From positions 3,328,001-3,392,000 of the forward strand of contig CBDDPY010000002.1 of the NCBI GenBank assembly GCA_965232515.1: a stretch of 64,000 nt of DNA. Direction: 5' to 3'. The position numbers and the translations under genes were made by a program. The notes beneath the pieces were generated by a model. It was not told the DNA's origin and searched no databases. It saw only the letters and a program-made list of their open reading frames with translations. Source of the stretch: Alphaproteobacteria bacterium (GTDB lineage Bacteria > Pseudomonadota > Alphaproteobacteria > GCA-2731375). This document shows, in pieces, positions 36,085 through 61,187 of the stretch (position 1 is its first letter; every line of letters begins with the position of its first letter).

Positions 36085-37563
36085 ATGTCGCAGGAACCAC
36101 CTCACAGCGTATCGGAAACAGGGCTCGCACGCCTCGCCCGGCGGATCGCACGCGATCTGGACTATCTGAACTATCCGCCCCGGAACTGGGTCGTGCCGCA
36201 CGATGACGGGCACGGCGGCCAGCTCGTTGACGTCGCCATCGTTGGCGGCGGCATGTGCGGCCTGACGCTCGCCTTCGCGTTGCGGCGTGTCGGCGTCGGC
36301 AACATCCGCCTGATCGACAGCCAGCCGGACGGTCAGGAAGGCCCCTGGGTGACCTATGCCCGCATGGCCACCCTGCGCTCGCCCAAGCACCTGGTCGGCC
36401 CGGCGCTCGACCTGCCCAGCCTCACCTTCCGGGCCTGGTACGAGGCGCAGTTCGGCGTCGATGCCTGGGAGGCGCTCGGCCGCATCGACCGGACGATGTG
36501 GATGGACTATCTGCGCTGGTACCGCCGGGTCCTGGACCTGCCGGTCGAGAACGGCGTGACGATGACATCGCTTGCGTCCGAAGGCGACGCCATCCGCCTT
36601 GATCTCGAAAGGGCGAGCGGCCCCGACGTGCTGCGGGCCCGCAAAGTGGTGCTGGCCACAGGACGCGACGGGCTGGGCGGTCCCTATACGCCGGCCGTCG
36701 CCGCGGGCCTGCCGGCCGATCGCTGCAGCCACTCGGCCGACGACATCGATTTCGCGGCGCTTGCCGGCAGGCAGGTCGCGGTGCTGGGCGGCGGCGCCTC
36801 GGCCTGCGACAACGCCGGCGTCGCGCTCGAGATGGGCGCCGCCGAGGTGCGGCAGTTCGTGCGCCGCGACGACCTGCCGCGCGTCAACAAATCCAAGGGC
36901 GCGGTCTATGCCGGCTATGCGCTGGCGTTTCCGCACCTGGACGACGCCTGGCGCTGGCGCTTTCTGCATTACGTGCTGGACGAACAGGTGCCGCCGCCGC
37001 GCGAATCCATGCTGCGGCTCTCACGGCACGCCAACTATCACCTGCAGCTCGGCTGCCCCTGGCGGCGGGCCGAAGCGGACGGCGACGGCATCGCCATCGA
37101 CACACCCAAGGGCGTGTTTCACGCCGACCACGCGATCATCGGCACCGGCTTCGACGTCGACATCGGCCGTCGGCCCGAGCTGGCGGCGCTCGCAGATCAC
37201 GTGCTGCTCTGGCAGGACCGGGTCGCCATCGACGATGGCGAACTGTCCCGTCAGTTCGGCCGGTTTCCCTATCTGGGTCCGGACTTCGCTTTCCTGCCGC
37301 GCGCGCCCGACGGCCCAGGCTGGCTCGCCAACGTGCATTGCTTCAACTATGCCTCGACGCTGAGCCACGGCCCCGTCAGCGGCGATATCCCGCTGCTCGG
37401 GTTCGGTGCCGAGCGCCTCGCCGGCGGGGTCGCCGCCAGTTTCTTCGACGCGGACAAGCAGGCCCATTTCGCCGACCTGCAGGCCTTCGACGAACCGGAA
37501 CTGCTGGGCGACGAATGGTCGGTCGACGACGCTGACCCGCCGCAGCGCCGACAACAATCCTGA
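36085..37563 (+). CDS. FAD/NAD(P)-dependent monooxygenase (HpyO-like)
   Basis: IVGGGMCG, EGPWVTYARMATLRSPK, VLATG, VLGGGASACDNA, GTGF, SGDIP. Confidence 0.8.
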   Translation: MSQEPPHSVSETGLARLARRIARDLDYLNYPPRNWVVPHDDGHGGQLVDVAIVGGGMCGLTLAFALRRVGVGNIRLIDSQPDGQEGPWVTYARMATLRSPKHLVGPALDLPSLTFRAWYEAQFGVDAWEALGRIDRTMWMDYLRWYRRVLDLPVENGVTMTSLASEGDAIRLDLERASGPDVLRARKVVLATGRDGLGGPYTPAVAAGLPADRCSHSADDIDFAALAGRQVAVLGGGASACDNAGVALEMGAAEVRQFVRRDDLPRVNKSKGAVYAGYALAFPHLDDAWRWRFLHYVLDEQVPPPRESMLRLSRHANYHLQLGCPWRRAEADGDGIAIDTPKGVFHADHAIIGTGFDVDIGRRPELAALADHVLLWQDRVAIDDGELSRQFGRFPYLGPDFAFLPRAPDGPGWLANVHCFNYASTLSHGPVSGDIPLLGFGAERLAGGVAASFFDADKQAHFADLQAFDEPELLGDEWSVDDADPPQRRQQS

Positions 37564-38481
37564 TCAGTCGGCGGCGAGCCCGCCGAAACGTTCCCGGAAG
37601 TAGGCCGCGGCCTCGGGCAACGGCCCCTCGGCCGTTTCCGCCGCGGCCATCAGGTGTTCTTCGGCCGGTAGGGCCGTGAGGCGGTAGAGGTTGCGGCAGA
37701 GCGCGCGGGCGGGCCGGCCCGGCCAGTCGACCGGCAACAGCTCGTCCGGCAGCATGGGATCGCGCAACAGCACCCGCCGATAGTCGTGCACCAGCAGCGT
37801 TCGGACCAGGAAGCAACTCCGCGGGTCCGGCGCCGACGCCTCGCCCAAGGCCTGGTAGATCGGCCGGAAGTGATCGACGAAGGCCGCGTAGTCGGCGGCG
37901 AGCCGGTCGAGATCCCAGGCGCCACGCACCAGCGCCTGCAGCGCCGGCAGCTGGTTCGTCGCCTGCGCCGTCATCACCACCAGCCGGTCGGTCAGACCCT
38001 GATCCTGGAAGGTTTGGGTCAACGCCTCCATGTCCGGCGCCGGATGCGCCAGCACGGTCGGCGCGAACGTGCCGAATCCCAGCCATTGCAGCTCGCGCCG
38101 CACGGCCTCGCGCGCCGCACTGTCGAGCTCGCCGGCCAGGACCAGCCGCCACTGGCCGTCCCACGGCGCCCGCGGCGGCGCGTAGATCCGCCGGTGCGCC
38201 GCCTCGAAGCGCTGGCGGCCGCTTTCGGTCAGGCTGTAATAGCTGCGCCGGCCGAGCTGACGCGCGGCCAGCCAGTCGTCGGCCACCAGCCGGAACACGG
38301 CCGTGCGCACCATGCGCTCGTTCAGGCCCAGCGGCGCGACCAGCCGGATCAGACTGCCAAGCCAGACCGAACCGCCATGCGGCAGGATGGCGTCGCCGAA
38401 CACCGTGACGATGACCGACTTCCCCTTCAAGTCGATCTGCCGCCTGAGCTTGTCGATCAATCCGTCGAGCCGCCGGGTCAT
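37564..38481 (-). CDS. paaX: PaaX-family transcriptional repressor
   Basis: SVIVTVFGDAILPHGGSVWLGSLI, VRTAVFRL, WDGQW, LVHDYRRVLLRDPMLPDELLP.DWPG; SD AGGAGG. Confidence 0.92.
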   Translation of the reverse strand: MTRRLDGLIDKLRRQIDLKGKSVIVTVFGDAILPHGGSVWLGSLIRLVAPLGLNERMVRTAVFRLVADDWLAARQLGRRSYYSLTESGRQRFEAAHRRIYAPPRAPWDGQWRLVLAGELDSAAREAVRRELQWLGFGTFAPTVLAHPAPDMEALTQTFQDQGLTDRLVVMTAQATNQLPALQALVRGAWDLDRLAADYAAFVDHFRPIYQALGEASAPDPRSCFLVRTLLVHDYRRVLLRDPMLPDELLPVDWPGRPARALCRNLYRLTALPAEEHLMAAAETAEGPLPEAAAYFRERFGGLAAD

Positions 38482-38577
38482 GGCGCGCTTCGGCCTCCTG
38501 TTGGTCGATTCAGTCTGTCGCCGGACATAGTTCACACCCCTGGCCTTGTCCACGGCCGCCAGAGCGGCGCAATGGCG

Positions 38578-38605
38578 TTGACAGATCGTAAATGATACAT
38601 ATACT
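38578..38605 (+). promoter_or_regulatory. Sigma70-type promoter TTGACA-N16-TATACT
   Basis: Near-consensus -35 (38578-38583) and -10 (38600-38605) upstream of the gene at 38647. Confidence 0.7.
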
Positions 38606-38635
38606 ACGATCTATCCTATAAATTGGTATCATATT
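38592..38635. promoter_or_regulatory. Putative PaaX operator 1 (ATGATAC-N27-GTATCAT)
   Basis: Perfect 7-bp inverted repeat overlapping the promoter; same architecture recurs at 40766-40807. Confidence 0.72.
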
Positions 38636-38646
38636 GGAGAGCCACG

Positions 38647-39459
38647 ATGCCGGATTGGAAGACTTACGACAAGGGCGATCCAATGCCCGAGGATTATCGG
38701 AAGCTGCTGATCCATCTGATGACCTTTCAGGCCGATTCCGAATATGCCGGCGCCCAGCGCGTCGCCGAAAACATGCGCTTCGCGCCAAGGCCGGAGGAGG
38801 CCTACCGGCTGTCGAAGAAGGTCATGGAGGAGATGGGCCACGGCTACTATGTCTGGGCGCTGTTGCAGGATCTCGGCGTCGATGTCGACGCCCGGCTGCA
38901 GGAACTGGTCCAGCATCCCGACAACCCGGATCCGAAGAAGGTCAACGTGATCAACGGTTTCCGCAAGGAGAACTGGTCGCAGTGGTTCGAGTGCTGGGAA
39001 GACGTGGCGCTGTTCTCGACCGTCGTCACGCCGGCCGCGGTGGCGTTTCTGGGTCAATACCGCGAGTGTTCCTACAAGCCCTGGGCCCGCGTCAACGTGC
39101 GCATTCACAAGGAAGAGCACGGCCATCTGGCGTTCGGCGTCTGGGCGTCCAAGCGCTGTATCGAGTTCGGCGGCGAGGAGACGCGCGCCTTCATGCAGAC
39201 CCGCATTCCGAAATTCATGCGCGTCGGCCTCGGCTTCTACGGCCGGCCGTCGACCGGCGGTGCGAAGTCCGCGATGTTCGACAAGTATTACGAATACGGC
39301 ATCAAGGTGAAGAAGCCTGAAGAGCTTCAGGCCGAGTATCTCGAATTGCTTGAGTCGCGGTTGGCCGAGGTCGGCCTGGAAGTGCCCGCCGACATCGAAG
39401 CCGACTACGACATGCGCATGGGCTACGAGGCCGACGAGCCGGCCACGGCGGCACAGTAG
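38647..39459 (+). CDS. PaaA/PaaC-family ferritin-like diiron protein (atypical)
   Basis: MPEDYRKLL, QADSE, EEMGHG, CSYKPWAR, KEEHGH; two ExxH motifs. Confidence 0.8.
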   Translation: MPDWKTYDKGDPMPEDYRKLLIHLMTFQADSEYAGAQRVAENMRFAPRPEEAYRLSKKVMEEMGHGYYVWALLQDLGVDVDARLQELVQHPDNPDPKKVNVINGFRKENWSQWFECWEDVALFSTVVTPAAVAFLGQYRECSYKPWARVNVRIHKEEHGHLAFGVWASKRCIEFGGEETRAFMQTRIPKFMRVGLGFYGRPSTGGAKSAMFDKYYEYGIKVKKPEELQAEYLELLESRLAEVGLEVPADIEADYDMRMGYEADEPATAAQ

Positions 39460-39470
39460 GAGGACGCGCG

Positions 39471-39881
39471 ATGATGCGTGAAGAAGGCGTCGCCGAGCTG
39501 CCGAACCGGCTGTTCGCCGACGGCCGCAGCATCCTGGCCCGCTTCGGCTATCGGCACGTCGCGAACGGCGCCGAACGCGATGACTGGGCCGCCATGTGGG
39601 ACCTGCTGCGGCCGGACTTCGCAACGGCGGAACGGCCGGACATCGCAACCTACGACGTGCTCTCCGAGGAGGCGCAATCGCTGGCCCGCGCCTACATGCG
39701 CGTCCGGCTGGAGGCCGACCGAAATCTGGAGGCCTGCGAGCGGCTGCATGTACAGCTCTATGCCGACGGTATCGACAAGGACGTCGTCGAGGACTACGCC
39801 GTCGTCCGCGACGCCTATGAAGACAGCGTCGAGGCCTTCGGCGCCGCACGCGAAAAACTGGCGCCGCACCTGTCCCGGTAG
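39471..39881 (+). CDS. Hypothetical acidic helical protein
   Basis: SD GGAGGA, 11 nt after the diiron gene, followed by a terminator; no family recognised. Confidence 0.75.
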   Translation: MMREEGVAELPNRLFADGRSILARFGYRHVANGAERDDWAAMWDLLRPDFATAERPDIATYDVLSEEAQSLARAYMRVRLEADRNLEACERLHVQLYADGIDKDVVEDYAVVRDAYEDSVEAFGAAREKLAPHLSR

Positions 39882-39905
39882 GTGTTCGTCACAACACCTG
39901 AATTC

Positions 39906-39933
39906 GGCCCCGCACGTCGGGGCCTTTTCTTTT
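39906..39933 (+). terminator. Rho-independent terminator
   Basis: ggccccg-cacgt-cggggcc followed by ttttctttt. Confidence 0.8.
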
Positions 39934-39953
39934 GTGCAATTAGGCCGGCCGGC

Positions 39954-40736
39954 TCAGACCGCGCCGGCGGTGGCGACTGGCGCCTCAAGTTCCAACGCCG
40001 CCAGACGTGTCTGCATCTCGCTTTCCCAACGCGCCAGCAGGTCGGCGTTGCCGTATTGCCGCAGGCCATAGCTGCGATAGAGCTCGAACCGCCGCGAATC
40101 CAGCCGGCCGAACGTGGCCGCGACCCGCGGATGCCAGTAGTTGACCGCCGCCTGCGCCGCCAGTCGGTCGCCGGTGCGCTCGATCGCCTGGCGCAGGCCG
40201 GTCTCGCCCAACGCGGCGTGTTCGGCCTCGCGCGGCACCACGTCACGCATCACGGTCGCGAGCGGCGCATAAGAGCACGCCGCCAGCTCGGCCAACTGGA
40301 TCGACGAGGCGATGCCCATGGCCATGTTCATGGTCACCGCGTCCAGCCAGCCCTGGACCGGATAGTGGAAGACGTTCAAGCGTTTGTCGCCGGCAATGCG
40401 GCGGGTGCCGAGATCGAGCTCGCGGTTCAGCCGCGCCGCCCAGGGGTGCGAACGCAGATACAGCGCCGGGTTGACGCCGAAACGTTCCAGCAGCGCCAGC
40501 ACGGCCTCCGCATGGGCGAACTTTTCACTCACCATGCGGGCGGCGATGCTGCGTTCGCGCAGGCCCGGGGCGCTGTTGATGTGATCGACGAAGCCAGCGG
40601 CGCCCGCGAGCTCCGAATCCACGAACACGACCATCAGTCGCATCAACTCGCCGCGATAGCCGGGCGACAGCTCGTCGTCCGCATCCAACCGGCCGCCGCC
40701 GCCTATGCGCTCGATCATGTCCGCGTCGGTCACCAT
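39954..40736 (-). CDS. PaaA/PaaC-family ferritin-like protein with degenerate iron ligands
   Basis: PGYRGELMRLM..FVDSELAG, SEKFAH, CSYAPLA, REAEH, YWHPRV. Start trimmed to MVTDAD. Confidence 0.78.
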   Translation of the reverse strand: MVTDADMIERIGGGGRLDADDELSPGYRGELMRLMVVFVDSELAGAAGFVDHINSAPGLRERSIAARMVSEKFAHAEAVLALLERFGVNPALYLRSHPWAARLNRELDLGTRRIAGDKRLNVFHYPVQGWLDAVTMNMAMGIASSIQLAELAACSYAPLATVMRDVVPREAEHAALGETGLRQAIERTGDRLAAQAAVNYWHPRVAATFGRLDSRRFELYRSYGLRQYGNADLLARWESEMQTRLAALELEAPVATAGAV

Positions 40737-40765
40737 CGCAGGATACTCCCGAGTCGTCAGAAAGA

Positions 40766-40807
40766 GATACAAGAATAGACAATTTATTGTTCGATTGGTA
40801 TCATATT
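40766..40807. promoter_or_regulatory. Putative PaaX operator 2 (GATAC-N27-GTATC)
   Basis: GATACA at 40766; ATTGGTATCATATT at 40794-40807 is identical to 38622-38635, with identical spacing. Confidence 0.72.
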
Positions 40808-40853
40808 TTCCGTAAGATTGGATTTGCAGCGGACCGAGCGAGAACGGCGCGCC

Positions 40854-41303
40854 ATGGTCGATATCGTGATTTTCGTCGGCACCGAGTCGGGCAACGCGGC
40901 GATGGTTGCCGACACGCTGCGCGACGAACTGGGTGACAACGGCCACGCGATCGATGTGATCGAGGACTTCGAGGCGGACCCGCCCGCCCTCGAGGCTGAC
41001 AAAGTCGTACTCTTGTGCACGGCGACGCATGGGCTCGGCGAACTGCCGGACAACATCATGCCGCTGCACGACCGGCTGACGCAGGACCGGCCCGATCTCA
41101 CCGGCATCCGCTATGGCGTTATCGCCCTTGGCGACCAGACCTACAGCGACACCTTCTGCAATGCCGGCCGCCAGATGGACACGCTGTTCGCCGAGCTCGG
41201 CGGCGCCCGCGTCGGCGAACGGCTGGAGATCGACGCCTGCACCCAGCCGCTGCCCGACGAGGAGGCCATCGACTGGGCCAAGGAGTGGGTGGCGATGTTA
41301 TAG
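40854..41303 (+). CDS. Flavodoxin (MioC/YqcA-like)
   Basis: GTESGNA, ATHGLGELPDN, ALGD.TY..TFC. Confidence 0.92.
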   Translation: MVDIVIFVGTESGNAAMVADTLRDELGDNGHAIDVIEDFEADPPALEADKVVLLCTATHGLGELPDNIMPLHDRLTQDRPDLTGIRYGVIALGDQTYSDTFCNAGRQMDTLFAELGGARVGERLEIDACTQPLPDEEAIDWAKEWVAML

Positions 41304-41365
41304 CGGCGACTTTTTCGCCGGACGGCGTATGCTAGGGCACCGTCGAATCGATGCCGGGTTGGGGC

Positions 41366-44300
41366 ATGATTTTCGCGCACGAGCCGCCGGCTGAAACGCC
41401 GCCGCGGGCCGCCATATCGGCGCTTTATCGCAAGGACGAAACCGCCTGCCTGCAGGCGCTGCTGGCCGAGCTCGATCTGGCCGACGAGCAGCTCGCCGGC
41501 ATCGACGCGCGGGCGCGTTCGCTGGTGGCGGAGGTGCGCCGGCGGCGCATCGGCGAAGGCGGCATCGACGCCTTCATGCACGAGTACGACCTCGACAGCC
41601 GCGAGGGCGTGGTGCTGATGTGCCTGGCGGAAGCGCTGCTGCGCATTCCCGATGCCGAGACCGCCGACCGACTAATCCGTGACAAGCTGGCCGATGCCGA
41701 CTGGGACGCCCATCTCGGCCGGTCGGAATCGCTGTTCGTCAATGCCTCGACCTGGGCGCTGATGCTGACCGGCCGGGTGATCCGCCTCGGAAGCCTGCGG
41801 GAAGACGATCTCGGCGCCCTGCTGCGGCGGCTGGTGGCGCGCAGCGGCGAGCCGGTGATCCGCCAGGCCGTGGTCCAGGCCATGCGCATCCTGGGGCGGC
41901 AGTTCGTCCTGGGGCGCACCATCGCCGAAGCGCTGAAGCGCGCCGACGAGGCCGAAACGAACGGCTATCGGCATTCCTACGACATGCTGGGCGAGGCCGC
42001 GAAGACCGCCGCCGACGCCGAGCGCTACGCACGGGCCTACGAATCGGCGATCGCCGCCATCGGCAGGCACGCGAACGGTCGCGGCCCGATCGACGGTCCC
42101 GGCATCTCGGTCAAGCTGTCGGCCCTGCATCCGCGCTACGAGCTGGCGCAGATGTCGCGGGTGACGGACGAATTGCGGCCGCGCCTGCTGGCGCTCGCCG
42201 TCGCCGCGAAGGACGCCGGCATCGGCTTCACCGTCGACGCCGAGGAGGCAGACCGCCTCGACCCCTCGCTCGATCTGTTCGACGCGCTGGCGACCGACCC
42301 GGCGCTTGCCGGCTGGGACGGCCTCGGCCTCGCGGTGCAGGCCTATCAGAAACGCGCGCCGGCGGTGATCGACTGGCTCGCCGACCTCGCGCGGCGCGGT
42401 AAGCGGCGCTTGATGGTCCGGCTGGTCAAAGGGGCGTACTGGGACACCGAGATCAAACGCAGCCAGGAAGGCGGCTTCGCGGGCTATCCGGTGTTCACGC
42501 GCAAGCTCAACACCGATGTTTCCTACCTCGCCTGCGCCAAGCGGCTGCTGGCGGACGAACAGGCCTTCTATCCGCAGTTCGCCACCCACAACGCGCACAC
42601 GCTCGCCGCCGTGGTCGAGATGGCCGGCAACCGGCGTGACTTCGAGTTCCAGCGCCTGCACGGCATGGGTGATGCGCTCTACGCGCAGGTGGTCGGCGGC
42701 GGTCTTGGCGTCGACTGCCGGATTTACGCGCCCGTCGGCAGCCACGAGGACCTGTTGGCCTATCTGGTGCGCCGGTTGCTCGAAAACGGCGCCAACACAT
42801 CGTTCGTCAACCGCATCGTCGACGAAAAGGCGCCGATCGACGACATCGTCGCCGACCCCATCGCCAAGGCCCGCGCGCTCGACGCGGCGCCGCATCCGCG
42901 CATCCCGCTACCGTCCCGGATCTTTGGCGACGAGCGGCGCAATTCCGTCGGCCTGGACCTGAGCGACATCACGGTGCTGCGACCGCTGGCATCGGAGATC
43001 AACGCCGCGGTGGACGGCAATTGGATGGCGGCGCCATTGGTGGCCGGCGAAACCCAACCAGGCCAGGTCGCCGACGTCACCGATCCGTCGGACCGCCGTC
43101 GGATCGTCGGCGCCGTCGTCGACGCCACGGCTGAGGATGCCGCCGCCGCGATGTCGGCCGCTGCTGCAGCGGCGCCGGCTTGGGACGCGACGCCGGCCGA
43201 TACGCGCGCCGCCTGCCTCGACCGCATGGCCGACATTCTGGAACGCGATATGGCGCGCTTCATGGCGATGGCCGTGCGCGAGGCCGGCAAGACCCTGCCC
43301 GACGCCGTGGCGGAGGTGCGTGAGGCTATTGATTTTTGCCGGTATTACGCGGCCCGTGCCCGGGCCGATTTCGCCGCGCCGCTGGCGCTGCCGGGCCCGA
43401 CCGGTGAGCGCAACGAGATCGCCCTGCACGGCCGCGGCGTCTTCGTCTGCATCAGCCCGTGGAACTTTCCGCTGGCGATCTTCTGCGGTCAGGTGACGGC
43501 GGCGCTGGCCGCCGGCAACGCCGTGATCGCCAAGCCGGCCGAACAGACGCCGCTGATCGCGCACGCCGCGGTCTCGGCGCTCTACGAAGCCGGCGTGCCC
43601 GCCGAGGCCCTGCAATTGCTGCCCGGTCCGGGCGAGGTCGTCGGCGCTGCGTTGATCGCCGATCCCCGGCTGGCCGGTGTCGCCTTCACCGGCTCGACCG
43701 AGACCGCGGCCATCATCAACCGCACGCTCGCCGCGCGCGACGGACCGATCGTGCCGCTGATCGCCGAAACCGGCGGCCAGAACGCCATGCTGGTGGATTC
43801 ATCGGCCTTGCCCGAGCAGGTGGTGACGGACACCGTCGCCTCGGCCTTCCAGAGCGCCGGCCAGCGCTGTTCGGCGCTGCGCGTATTGTTTTTGCAGGAC
43901 GATGTCGCCGACAAGACTATCGACATGCTGGCCGGCGCCATGGACGAGCTGAGTGTCGGCGACCCCGCCTTGCTGCGCACCGACGTCGGCCCGGTGATCG
44001 ACAATGACGCCAGGCAGATGCTAGAAGACCACGCCGCACGCATGGACCGCGAAGCCACACTCATCCGGCAGGTCGAGATGGGGGAGGAAACCGCACACGG
44101 CACCTTCGTCGCGCCGCGCGCCTATGAGATCGACAGCCTGGACTGGCTGCACGGCGAGGTGTTCGGACCCGTCCTACACATCGTGCGCTATCAACAGTCC
44201 CACCTCGAGGCGGTGATCGACGCCATCAACGGCACCGGCTTCGGCCTAACGCTGGGCATTCACAGCCGCATCGACGCCACGGTCGAGTACATCCATGCGC

Positions 44301-58831: not shown

Positions 58832-59620
58832 TCACGCGCCGTCTTTGCGGGCCTTGAAGTCCGGTTGCCGGCGTTCGCGGAAGGCGGCGAGGCCTTCCTG
58901 GATGTCGTCGCCCTGGCCGGCCGCCATGGCGAGCCAGTATTCCATGGCGTCGGCCGCCTCGACGCTTTGGTAGAGCGTCGTCAGGGCGATGCGTTTGTAG
59001 GACTGGACGGAGACGGGCGACATGACGGCGATCTCCGCGGCCATGCCGACGGCGCGGTCGACGAGCTCGGCCGCGGGCACCACCAAGTTGACGAAGCCGA
59101 AGTGTTCGGCGCGGGCGCTCGACAGCTCGGTGCCGCGCATGATCATCTCGTTGACGATCGCCGGCGGCAGCAGGTGCGGCAAGCGCGACGACTGGCCGGC
59201 GATGGGCACGATGCCGAGCCTGGCGCCCGGCACGCCGAAGGTCGCGTCAGGCGTCGCCAGCCTGAGATCGCTGTTGAGCGCGAGGCAGAACCCGCCCGCG
59301 TAGGCCGCGCCGTTGACGGCGGCGATCACCGGTTTCATGGTGTTTCGCGGGCACAGGAAGACCTGCATGTGTTCTTCTTCGTAGAGATGGCCGAGATTGC
59401 CCGGCGCCATGGCCTTGATGTCGTGGCCGGCGCAGAAGGCCTTGTCGCCGGCGCCGGTGAGCACGATCGCGCGCACCGAGGCGTCGGCGTCGAACGTCCG
59501 AAAGGCCTCCAGCATCTGCGCGATCATCGCGGGCGTCATGGCGTTCCGCTTGTCGGGCCGGTCGATGGTGATGAGCGCGACGCCGGGTTGCGCGACCTCG
59601 GCCGTTACGATCCCGTCCAA
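58832..59620 (-). CDS. Crotonase/enoyl-CoA hydratase family protein
   Basis: DRPDKRNAM, AFCAGHDI, KPVIAAVNG.AYAGG, EGLAAFRERRQPDF. Confidence 0.88.
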   Translation of the reverse strand: MDGIVTAEVAQPGVALITIDRPDKRNAMTPAMIAQMLEAFRTFDADASVRAIVLTGAGDKAFCAGHDIKAMAPGNLGHLYEEEHMQVFLCPRNTMKPVIAAVNGAAYAGGFCLALNSDLRLATPDATFGVPGARLGIVPIAGQSSRLPHLLPPAIVNEMIMRGTELSSARAEHFGFVNLVVPAAELVDRAVGMAAEIAVMSPVSVQSYKRIALTTLYQSVEAADAMEYWLAMAAGQGDDIQEGLAAFRERRQPDFKARKDGA

Positions 59621-59621
59621 A

Positions 59622-61187
59622 TCACCCTCCCCTCATTTCCAATGGCGTTGTGTGTTCGGCGTGCCGTTTCATGAGTTCCTTGCGAAGCACCTTGCCGCCG
59701 GCGTTTCGCGGCAGTTCGTCGACCACGATGAATTCGGCCGGGACCTTCGCGGGCGAAAGGTTCTCCCGGCAATGTTGCGTCAGCCCATCGGCGACGTCGT
59801 CGTTTCCGGCGTCACGAGCGACGATAAAGGCGGTTACCTTTTGGCCGAGCACGGCGTCCGGCGTGCCGACGACCGCCACGTCCAGAACGGCGTGGTGTCG
59901 GGCGAGCGCATTCTCGACCTCGATCGGCGAGATGTTCAGGCCGCCGCGGATGATCATCTCGGACGTGCGGCCGGAGAGGAAGATGTTGCCGTCCGCGTCG
60001 ACGCGACCGATGTCCTGGGTATGGATCCACCCGTCGCGCACGCGCTCGGCCGTCAGCGCCGGATCGCCGAGATAGCCGCGCATCAGCGTCGGTCCGCGCA
60101 TGGTGATCTCGCCGGTCTCGCCGACAGCGAGCGGCCGGCCGTCGGGGTCGCGGACGCAGACCTCGAAGCCCGGGCTGATCTTGCCGACGCCGTGCGCGAG
60201 ATGCGGTTCGTCGGCCGGTTCGACGGCGGCGCCGGGGATCTCGGTCATGCCGTAGTTCGCGATCAGCGATACGCGGCTGAAGGCCCGGAACCGCTCGACG
60301 TCGGCATGGCTGATCGGCGCCGACGCCGTGTAGAGCGCCCTCAGCGACGAGAGATCGTAGCGGTCGTTGCCCTCAAGGTTGAGGATCATCAGCACCATCG
60401 CCGGCACGAAGGCCGCGGTGGTGACGCGGTGGCGTTCGATGGCGGCCAGCGCGCGTTCGGGATGGAAGCGCTCGAGCAGGACCAGGGTCGCGCCCGCGTA
60501 GATCACCGACGCGGCGCTGAAGATCAGGCCGTAGATGGTGTGGAACGGCAGCGCGCCGAGGACGACGTCGCCGGGCGAGAGCTTCCAGGTCCGCATAAGG
60601 ACCTCGTGCAGCGCCCGCAGCGTCGCGCGGCTGTGGACGATCGCCTTCGGCTTGCTGGTGGTGCCGGAACTGAACAGCACCACGGCCCAGTCGTCCGGAT
60701 GGTCCGGCATGGCGGCAGGCCGGACGGCGGCCGATGGATCTTTGCCCCGCACCCAATGGGGCAAGGCGCCGTCCGTCGAGTCCGACAACGTGTGCCAGGC
60801 CGCCGCGGTCGGCGGTGGAATGGATGCGGCCGCGCGCCGGCCGGCCAGCACGTGCCGCGCGCCGGTGACCTCGAGATAGTGGTCGACGTCGGCGCCCGTG
60901 CCGGTCGGATCGCCGACGACGATAACGGCCTCGATCGCATGCAGCGCCCAGTAGGTGACGACCGACTCGGCGCAGACGTCGAGCAGCACCAGCACCGGAT
61001 CGCCGGCCTCGATGCCGAGCGTCCGCAGCGTCAGAGCGCAGGCGTCGATCTCCGATCTCAATTGTCCGTAGCTAAGGCAACGACGTTCGTCGACGACGCC
61101 GTCCTGCTCCGATCGGTTATCGGCATGTTGCCAGATCGCCGCCACAATGGGTGGCGGCGGGGCGTTCGGTCCCCTCGTCCCGGTCAT
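59622..61187 (-). CDS. Acyl-CoA synthetase (class I adenylate-forming)
   Basis: FSSGTTSKPK, YGMTE, TQDIG, GR..EMIIRGG.NI.P.EVE, PRNAGGKVL. Confidence 0.93.
   Translation of the reverse strand: MTGTRGPNAPPPPIVAAIWQHADNRSEQDGVVDERRCLSYGQLRSEIDACALTLRTLGIEAGDPVLVLLDVCAESVVTYWALHAIEAVIVVGDPTGTGADVDHYLEVTGARHVLAGRRAAASIPPPTAAAWHTLSDSTDGALPHWVRGKDPSAAVRPAAMPDHPDDWAVVLFSSGTTSKPKAIVHSRATLRALHEVLMRTWKLSPGDVVLGALPFHTIYGLIFSAASVIYAGATLVLLERFHPERALAAIERHRVTTAAFVPAMVLMILNLEGNDRYDLSSLRALYTASAPISHADVERFRAFSRVSLIANYGMTEIPGAAVEPADEPHLAHGVGKISPGFEVCVRDPDGRPLAVGETGEITMRGPTLMRGYLGDPALTAERVRDGWIHTQDIGRVDADGNIFLSGRTSEMIIRGGLNISPIEVENALARHHAVLDVAVVGTPDAVLGQKVTAFIVARDAGNDDVADGLTQHCRENLSPAKVPAEFIVVDELPRNAGGKVLRKELMKRHAEHTTPLEMRGG

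Follow-up and report, generated by a model that had tools for sequence, protein, structure and literature searches.

The closest described counterpart of the locus reported here is PaaABC(D)E of Escherichia coli and Pseudomonas (PDB 3PW8, 4IIT), the epoxidase acting on the ring of phenylacetyl-coenzyme A (phenylacetyl-CoA). A further diiron enzyme of the same superfamily, the benzoyl-CoA 2,3-epoxidase BoxAB, likewise attacks the ring of a CoA ester. For phenylacetate degraders without paaABCD, a 2015 study treats the missing enzyme as unknown and, in its accessible text, terms it 'yet-to-be-identified' (PMC4453571). In the available part of a 2026 survey, paa clusters without epoxidase are filed as 'other configurations', ligases are kept only if co-localized with PaaABCDE, and flavodoxin is unmentioned (PMC13186573). 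The GapMind work, as far as its available text goes, fills a different gap, that of oxepin-CoA hydrolase (PMC9007349). Here we analyse a locus within a stretch of 64,000 nucleotides (nt; in the following the window) from an Alphaproteobacteria bacterium (GCA_965232515.1, CBDDPY010000002.1, positions 3,328,001-3,392,000, forward strand), which consists of paaX (-), genes A (+) and B (+), a terminator, gene C (-) and the flavodoxin gene F (+), in this order (37564-41303). On balance, the locus rather probably encodes the core of a flavodoxin-driven alternative oxygenase, most likely an epoxidase, that attacks the ring of phenylacetyl-CoA and substitutes for PaaABCDE. In the literature searched, a description of the A/B/C/flavodoxin gene set was not found. 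The features of the locus are the following:

37564-38481, minus strand: paaX, ATG start read from the sequence; matches TIGR02277 and three PaaX Pfam domains
38578-38605, plus strand: predicted A-B promoter, TTGACA-16-TATACT (promoter scan, 11/12 matches)
38593-38598 and 38626-38631, plus strand: putative PaaX-type operator at the A-B promoter, TGATAC, N27, GTATCA (sequence reading)
38647-39459, plus strand: A, PaaA-type ferritin-like protein of 270 residues (PF05138), putative catalytic oxygenase subunit
39471-39881, plus strand: B, small all-alpha protein of 136 residues without family match, predicted obligate partner of A
39906-39934, plus strand: terminator-like hairpin (39906-39924; 7 G-C pairs, loop of 5) plus T-tract, tail TTTTCTTTTG, ending the A-B unit
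39954-40736, minus strand: C, PaaA-derived ferritin-like protein of 260 residues (PF05138) with altered metal site
40765-40770 and 40798-40803, plus strand: putative PaaX-type operator at the F promoter, AGATAC, N27, GTATCA (sequence reading)
40776-40804, plus strand: predicted F promoter, TAGACA-17-TATCAT (promoter scan)
40854-41303, plus strand: F, short-chain MioC/cindoxin-type flavodoxin (Flavodoxin_1), putative electron carrier

All five genes were found at the positions given in a first-pass annotation, which had been made from the sequence alone. B starts 11 nt past the stop codon of A and is preceded by GGAGG. For C, an ATG with GGGAG in front was taken as the start, which gives 260 residues; a 371-residue open reading frame is an over-extension.

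A is a member of the ferritin-like family PF05138 (PaaA_PaaC), with 93.4 bits at a gathering threshold of 28.5, and remains below the cut-offs of both equivalog models, with 85.7 bits for PaaA (TIGR02156, cut-off 280; canonical PaaA in relatives 461-554 bits) and 25.5 bits for PaaC (TIGR02158, cut-off 133). Its profile aligns with that of eight canonical PaaA sequences with a probability of 99.2% (hhalign, E 2.5e-19, 27% identity). The AlphaFold2 model of A (predicted local distance difference test, pLDDT, 92.2) finds PaaA (3pw8_C) as best match in the PDB, with E 5e-10, a template-modelling score of 0.76 and 24% identity, and BoxB among its further fold matches. Compared to PaaA, A lacks about 60 C-terminal residues and carries an insertion after helix D. 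The A family extends over alpha-, beta- and gammaproteobacteria at about 59-87% identity, including a subclade at 60-66% identity with the names Paraburkholderia, Cupriavidus and Phenylobacterium, and identity falls sharply, to about 30%, towards canonical PaaA. A match to A was not found in a plasmid collection (tblastn, E<=1e-40).

The metal ligands of canonical PaaA (E, ExxH, D, ExxH) are invariant in all eight sequences compared (E60, E90, H93, D144, E173 and H176 in the numbering of locus L109; loci are designated by L numbers). A retains five of these six, namely E32, E62xxH65 and E157xxH160. At the position of the Asp it has Thr128, as shown by two independent profile alignments, one of the hidden Markov model against PDB PaaA chains and one with hhalign against the eight PaaA, both of which bear out what had been read by eye before. 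The pair Thr128-Pro129 does not vary among 79 database sequences and 84/84 locus copies, and the model of A shows a helix break at this point.

C also belongs to PF05138 (66.2 bits) and scores 54.6 bits for TIGR02156, below the cut-off; a match to TIGR02158 was not found at E<=0.01. Profile comparison relates it to PaaA (hhalign probability 99.1%) and to A (99.3%), with 2.7% for PaaC (7 sequences), and on these grounds we regard C as a PaaA-derived paralogue and not as PaaC, a candidate assignment also rejected by its separate position in the tree. C keeps four of the six ligands: E42 (one Gln among 21 sequences), H75, E170 and H173. The Glu of the first ExxH is replaced by the invariant Lys72 (S70-E71-K72-F73-A74-H75) and the Asp by Gly141, in agreement with the first-pass annotation, which had noted E>K in SEKFAH and the loss of the Asp. 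The best PDB sequence match of C is the uncharacterized PaaA-like protein SSO1313 of Sulfolobus (PDB 4MUD, E 2.5e-10), which is short like A and C but retains the ExxH Glu that is Lys in C. A weak match to the BoxB model TIGR03225 (23.5 bits) links C to BoxAB; BoxB, a protein of 473 residues, is much more distant from both A and C than PaaA is. In its architecture alone, C can be likened to the R2 subunit of class Ie ribonucleotide reductase, a ferritin-like protein with substitutions of metal-binding carboxylates, including one by Lys, and with the flavodoxin-like activator NrdI as partner: C carries Lys72 and is almost always paired with a flavodoxin. The difference is that C keeps E42, H75, E170 and H173.

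A tree was calculated from 21 A, 17 C, 8 PaaA and 8 PaaC sequences, a third paralogue of the host genome and the host BoxB as outgroup, by a quick IQ-TREE search with support from the Shimodaira-Hasegawa-like approximate likelihood-ratio test only; four near-duplicate C rows were omitted. A (support 100), C (99), PaaA (100) and seven of the eight PaaC (100) form separate clades whose mutual order is not resolved, and the A clade is long-stemmed and apart from PaaA. Neither A nor C nests inside PaaA or PaaC, and the non-canonical placement proposed earlier thus stands.

The small protein B matches no Pfam or NCBIfam model at E<=0.01. A profile built from 60 orthologues found 55 matches at E<=0.001 among 1.84 billion representatives; 37 of the 38 top ones are short proteins of 51-153 residues, and the remainder (one of the top 38 and all others) consists of long proteins matched in several short segments, resembling coiled-coil noise. 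The AlphaFold2 model of B (pLDDT 81) is all-alpha, residues 66-99 and 103-133 forming a long helical hairpin, for which Foldseek found nothing in the PDB at E<=0.001 and only generic alpha-hairpins at E>=0.16, and no entry of the ESM Atlas was found at a score >=0.9. Judged by sequence, B appears to define a new small protein family. The first-pass annotation had considered it a PaaB analogue. Relationship to PaaB (PF06243, TIGR02157) is rejected by profile comparison (hhalign probability 0.4% against 4 PaaB) and by the all-alpha model, PaaB being described as a beta-barrel dimer in the part of a review that deals with it (PMC9493321). What survives of that proposal, on the basis of co-folding and gene adjacency, is the predicted role of B as a partner of A, without homology or similarity in fold to PaaB.

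In the co-folding of A with B, a part of the check suggested earlier for A, B and C, the complex test gave 0.89, compared to 0.00 for the best of three controls, at >=96% contact agreement between runs and a partner pLDDT of >=86. The mark reached is also reached by 58/80 solved complexes and 2/110 mismatched pairs, counts that hold only roughly here since custom alignments were supplied. The model supports binding of B to A. Its predicted contacts on A, residues 37-91 and 173-176, fall on three helices: the first long one at its end, the second long one with E62 and H65, and the short one that follows. The available text of the same review attributes the pairing of PaaA with PaaC to helices B and C (PMC9493321), and we infer from the model that B may sit on the surface of A that corresponds to the PaaC-type interface. 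The predicted A-B pair would thereby differ from PaaABC(D)E, with an all-alpha hairpin protein in the place of PaaC and a second paralogue, C, that is derived from PaaA.

Related loci were surveyed with one genome scanned per species, for the best 80 of 164 A relatives from alpha-, beta- and gammaproteobacteria. The gene following A is B in 80/80 loci, an adjacency that makes the pairing more than chance. In 67 of the 80 (76 have upstream room), paaX is divergent from A at a distance of <=1.2 kb, and a reductase gene follows behind paaX in 63. C was found within 8 kb of A in 9 loci, flavodoxin in 9, PaaG in 9 and PaaK in 11; a metallo-beta-lactamase-fold gene is present in 20 and a hemerythrin gene in 13. 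Downstream of B stands a Liv-type ATP-binding cassette transporter or a tripartite ATP-independent periplasmic (TRAP) transporter, with a LivK-type binding-protein gene in 33/81 and a TRAP transporter in 9/81 A loci when the window is included. PaaB, PaaC, PaaD and PaaE were not found in the related A loci. The objection that these genes might not occur together in other genomes is answered by the co-occurrence of A with B in 80/80 loci and of C in 8/8 other genomes with A.

The surroundings of C, surveyed in 20 loci, connect the system to phenylacetate degradation. PaaG is encoded directly 3' of C in most of them, and in 17 an F-type flavodoxin gene diverges from C; of the other three, two are canonical paaABCDE clusters and one stops at the locus edge. 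Elsewhere, C heads flavodoxin-paired paaG(H)I(J)K operons beside paaY or paaN. In L094 the order is paaN(-), flavodoxin(-), divergent from C, paaG, paaH, paaI, thiolase, paaK and a flavin adenine dinucleotide (FAD) monooxygenase. PaaG (406 vs 345 bits), PaaI (140 vs 119), PaaK (692 vs 646) and PaaN (851 vs 579) of this locus exceed their cut-offs, PaaH (635 vs 669) and a PaaY-like protein (309.5 vs 319.6) stay below, and the thiolase of the C clusters scores as 3-oxoadipyl-CoA thiolase. No paaABCDE was found within such C/paaG...paaK clusters, and A is encoded within about 10 kb of C in 11/20 C loci. The company of paaG/H/I/J/K/N/Y in other genomes is a feature shared with PaaABC(D)E.

Among 401 genomes of the class, A orthologues occur in 9, host included, and C orthologues in 14, which cover all 9 A genomes (one 27%-identical match was excluded). 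Canonical PaaA is present in 40/401 genomes and in 0/9 A genomes. PaaG scores over the cut-off in 60/401, including all 8 other A genomes; these 60 divide into 26 with canonical PaaA, 8 with A and 26 with neither, 3 of the latter being C-only, so that 26 of the 52 PaaG genomes without A have canonical PaaA. A wider phylum sample of 390 genomes contained 2 more A genomes, both of one genus, and for this reason adds nothing on the A subclade at 60-66% identity.

In E. coli, PaaX acts as a GntR-type repressor that senses phenylacetyl-CoA. The paaX product of the locus scores 316.1 bits for TIGR02277 (cut-off 264.55), matches the PaaX, PaaX_M and PaaX_C domains and is the sole copy in the host genome. 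A promoter scan of 37400-41500 detected just two sigma-70-like promoters, both on the plus strand, upstream of A and of F. The inverted repeat at 38593-38631 covers the -10 box and start region of the A-B promoter, that at 40765-40803 extends across the F promoter from -35 to -10, and the 14-mer ATTGGTATCATATT occurs twice in the 7.39-Mb genome, at the upstream regions of A and F. The motif TGAYAC-N26/27-GTRTCR is present in 57/81 distinct A upstream regions compared to 4/1221 control windows, and its spacing is 26 or 27 nt only, with 20-32 nt permitted. A GATACA..TAGACA..GGTATCA layout recurs in the C/flavodoxin spacers of L090, L094, L096 and L098. The PaaX site of E. coli reads TGATTC(N27)GAATCA in the part of the review devoted to it (PMC9493321). 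As read from the sequence, the two repeats have the build of PaaX-type operators, i.e. inverted 6-bp half-sites about 27 nt apart lying over promoters, and a 6-bp inverted repeat spaced by 27 nt is common to this locus and PaaABC(D)E. A wider PaaX regulon in the host genome was considered and rejected, as the strict pattern hits only the two sites of the locus. With one mismatch per half-site allowed, 57 matches were obtained in the genome; the sole other AT-rich one lies in what is presumably a LysR-type divergent spacer.

F exceeds the threshold of PF00258 (Flavodoxin_1, 98.9 bits) and falls below two NCBIfam cut-offs (NF005989, 143.2 vs 160; MioC, NF006531, 125.2 vs 158 bits); its nearest PDB entries are the flavodoxin 2m6r (E 1.4e-29), MioC and cindoxin (E 3.7e-18). 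The reductase encoded behind paaX in related loci matches bovine adrenodoxin reductase (AdR; E 4.8e-91) and FprA (E 4.8e-86). In five Azospirillum-type loci (L060, L081, L085, L086, L089), a PaaE-like Fer2-FNR reductase (TIGR02160, 139 bits, below cut-off) and an unknown gene of 364 codons replace the AdR-type reductase. The earlier suggestion that flavodoxin takes the role of PaaE is favoured, as far as sequences can tell, by the shared operator, by the conserved position of the flavodoxin beside C and by an AdR-type reductase in place of PaaE in most related loci; the pair would substitute for the iron-sulfur flavoprotein PaaE of PaaABC(D)E. In analogy, cindoxin works as a flavin mononucleotide (FMN) carrier between an FAD reductase and P450cin. 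The chain proposed for the locus would have the same order, FAD reductase, FMN flavodoxin and oxygenase; the terminal oxygenase is a P450 in the cindoxin system and a ferritin-like protein here.

Within the window, other paa genes were not found by tblastn with canonical PaaA-E and PaaG/H/I/J/K/N/Y from related loci as queries, which matched only A, C and three generic enoyl-CoA hydratases (25-35% identity); for this query set, the absence noted in the first-pass annotation holds. PaaB and canonical PaaA were not found in the host genome either. A PaaK protein (712.6 bits) is encoded 1.67 Mb from the locus, beside genes for a PaaG-like protein, PaaI, an FAD monooxygenase (C2:1701854-1703503) and a beta-lactamase-fold protein, and a thiolase is encoded elsewhere. 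The phenylacetate system of the host is dispersed and possibly incomplete.

Consistent with these data we propose the following scenario. PaaX would shut both promoters via the TGATAC-N27-GTATCA operators until phenylacetyl-CoA accumulates. An AdR/FprA-type flavoprotein might then take up electrons from NAD(P)H and hand them to the flavodoxin F, which would reduce the metal site of A; the gene of this flavoprotein, located behind paaX in most relatives, does not occur in the window. A, in a tight complex with the helical hairpin protein B, would activate O2 and oxygenate the CoA-bound ring. C, presumably under the same regulon, might serve as an accessory, non-canonical subunit or as a product-handling protein with a Lys in the former metal site. 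The original idea of an oxygenase for aryl-CoA or acyl-CoA esters is upheld in so far as the locus represents a PaaX-linked system of the PaaA family; its generic substrate can probably be narrowed to phenylacetyl-CoA, because the gene set is embedded in true paa clusters elsewhere. The assumed pair of a catalytic and a structural subunit turned out to be too simple, since C is not PaaC-like, occurs without A in three genomes and stands behind paaE in two.

A bolder version of this proposal, which we consider distinctly unlikely as a whole, takes A-B, C and flavodoxin as the missing ring oxygenase of phenylacetate degraders without paaABCD and as an enzyme built on new principles. These would comprise a five-ligand, possibly heterobimetallic site, the hairpin protein B in place of PaaC on helices B and C, flavodoxin and AdR-type reductase in place of PaaE, and a C-flavodoxin pair forming a metal-poor, Lys-containing unit that is directly activated and independent of A. 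Such an A-independent unit would explain both the family with C only and the C copies appended to paaABCDE.

Several observations weigh against a phenylacetyl-CoA oxygenase that substitutes for PaaABCDE. With the Asp ligand replaced by the invariant Thr-Pro, a canonical diiron site in A is not assured. In the host genome, PaaN was not found and no PaaZ scored over the cut-off, the PaaG-like protein (321 bits) stays under the cut-off of 345, and neither an orthologue of the transporter that follows B in relatives nor a PaaX-type operator at the paaG-like/paaI/paaK locus was found, none of the 57 relaxed matches lying there. A linked AdR-type reductase is also missing from the host, whose sole candidate, 50% identical, is encoded elsewhere among genes which we take to be 2-oxoacid:ferredoxin-oxidoreductase-like. 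In two alphaproteobacterial genomes, a C-like gene (L101:9426-10181(-), L102:1893-2654(-); 46-51% identical to C) directly follows paaE of a canonical paaABCDE cluster, with PaaC (298 bits) and PaaE (424.7 bits) beside it in L102, from which it follows that C-type proteins accompany the ordinary epoxidase too. Three genomes of one family have complete clusters (L091, L092, L093) with the flavodoxin, divergent from C-paaG...paaK, and PaaY, and contain neither A nor canonical PaaA; either a ring attacker other than A operates there or C is able to act alone. The FAD monooxygenase PRK08132, encoded in 7/20 C loci, might be a competing oxygenase. As a marker of the pathway PaaG is imperfect, given that 26/60 PaaG genomes have neither canonical PaaA nor A. 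The mutual exclusivity of A and PaaA rests on about 6 related families, and 0/8 A genomes with canonical PaaA is unsurprising against the unconditioned 40/401 and striking only among the PaaG genomes.

Among the other explanations, the one best compatible with the data, albeit rather unlikely, is that A-B forms a real flavodoxin-driven oxygenase which acts on a different CoA ester sensed by PaaX or a PaaX-like regulator and is no replacement of PaaABCDE. Its substrate could be a phenylacetyl-CoA bearing a substituent or hydroxyl group, a different arylacetyl-CoA or an intermediate of the pathway; the reverse, epoxide-deoxygenating reaction would be a further candidate. The 27% identity of A to PaaA, its long-stemmed clade and the Thr in place of Asp agree with this explanation. 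So do the genes that mostly follow A-B, which encode transporters, metallo-beta-lactamase-fold proteins and hemerythrins rather than paa functions, the lack of PaaN and PaaZ in the host and the annotation of PaaI in these clusters as a hydroxyphenylacetyl-CoA thioesterase. However, the regulator scores as a PaaX equivalog, A genomes hold otherwise complete paa sets without canonical PaaA, and no second ring oxygenase is conserved across them.

It is very unlikely that the host locus is a stranded remnant of a formerly complete cluster, with intact genes that have lost their role in phenylacetate degradation. The host does lack PaaN, PaaZ, PaaB, the linked reductase and the transporter orthologue, its PaaG-like protein, PaaI and PaaK are encoded 1.67 Mb away without operator, and the flanking genes for a flavin-containing monooxygenase (FMO)-like protein and putA stand beside A in 0/80 other loci. 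Yet five full-length open frames, both promoters and operators, the ligand residues and the family invariants have all been retained, and parts of the locus are covered by RNA-library contigs of a close relative, a weak point. Least probable of all is that another enzyme, e.g. the 561-residue FAD monooxygenase PRK08132, attacks the ring and that A, B and C are accessory (CoA-ester binding, protective) or regulatory: the FAD enzyme after paaK in 7 C loci and near paaK in the host, the C-only genomes, the missing Asp ligand of A and C and the Lys for Glu in C would fit, but that enzyme is missing from 13/20 C loci and present in 3/80 A loci, the rings attacked by class A flavoprotein hydroxylases are activated (phenolic) ones and such enzymes are not known to act on phenylacetyl-CoA, the dedicated reductase and flavodoxin imply redox chemistry, and ligands of A invariant in 79 sequences, at 60-87% identity over three proteobacterial classes, fit a constrained enzyme.

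Some further observations concern the surroundings of the locus and the host genome. The FMO-like gene (36085-37563, plus strand; Pyr_redox_3, Lys_Orn_oxgnase) stands tail-to-tail with paaX at zero gap; it and putA were considered as members of the system and, not adjoining A in any of the 80 related loci, are regarded as unrelated passengers. At 58847-60680 (minus strand), 18 kb off the locus, a generic enoyl-CoA hydratase gene (product 35% identical to PaaG) adjoins that of an enzyme binding adenosine monophosphate (AMP), which scores 23.7 bits against the PaaK model; they are probably an unrelated acyl-CoA pair. RNA-library contigs from one study (X1, X3), 95-99% alike and thus from a relative, span the A-B junction (39239-39605 and 39297-39671), and one X1 contig connects F with putA (40829-41894). 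They are no evidence of expression or operon structure, as neighbouring genes are covered equally thinly and carry-over of DNA is possible.

A third PaaA_PaaC gene of the host (L001:1462-2178, in C2:4284121-4294456) encodes 238 residues and scores 102.4 bits for PF05138 and 97.1 for TIGR02156 (cut-off 280). Its row contains 4Fe-4S-type proteins, a PaaK-like AMP ligase (139.5 bits), a Fer2-FNR reductase, a label based on the N-terminal sequence and a 28%-identity tblastn match, a short-chain dehydrogenase/reductase and a cupin, and may represent a candidate for another non-canonical CoA-ester oxygenase. The host also encodes BoxB (860.7 bits) and, at the locus edge, a BoxC fragment (C2:2136527-2139114), and accordingly has the benzoyl-CoA epoxide pathway too. 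In nine Oceanospirillaceae-type loci (L050, L056, L058, L062, L070, L075, L076, L078, L079), a DUF2889 gene stands behind the AdR-type reductase in 9/9, B is followed by a TRAP transporter and a universal-stress-protein gene in 6/9 and by a metallo-beta-lactamase-fold gene in 3/9, and the vicinity of the flavodoxin includes a PaaY-like hexapeptide gene in 5/9.

Phenylalanine, styrene and numerous further aromatics are channelled through the phenylacetate pathway, which makes it a central route. Annotation as 'PaaA', 'PaaI' or 'phenylacetic acid catabolic protein' hides how A and C differ from the canonical subunits. For paa clusters without paaABCDE, the locus suggests a specific set of candidates that is conserved in alpha-, beta- and gammaproteobacteria and amenable to testing. 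If the proposed function is true, pathway predictions for the genomes carrying A would be corrected, the CoA-ester diiron oxygenases would gain a flavodoxin-dependent member that is missing one carboxylate ligand, and B would define a new family of small subunits.

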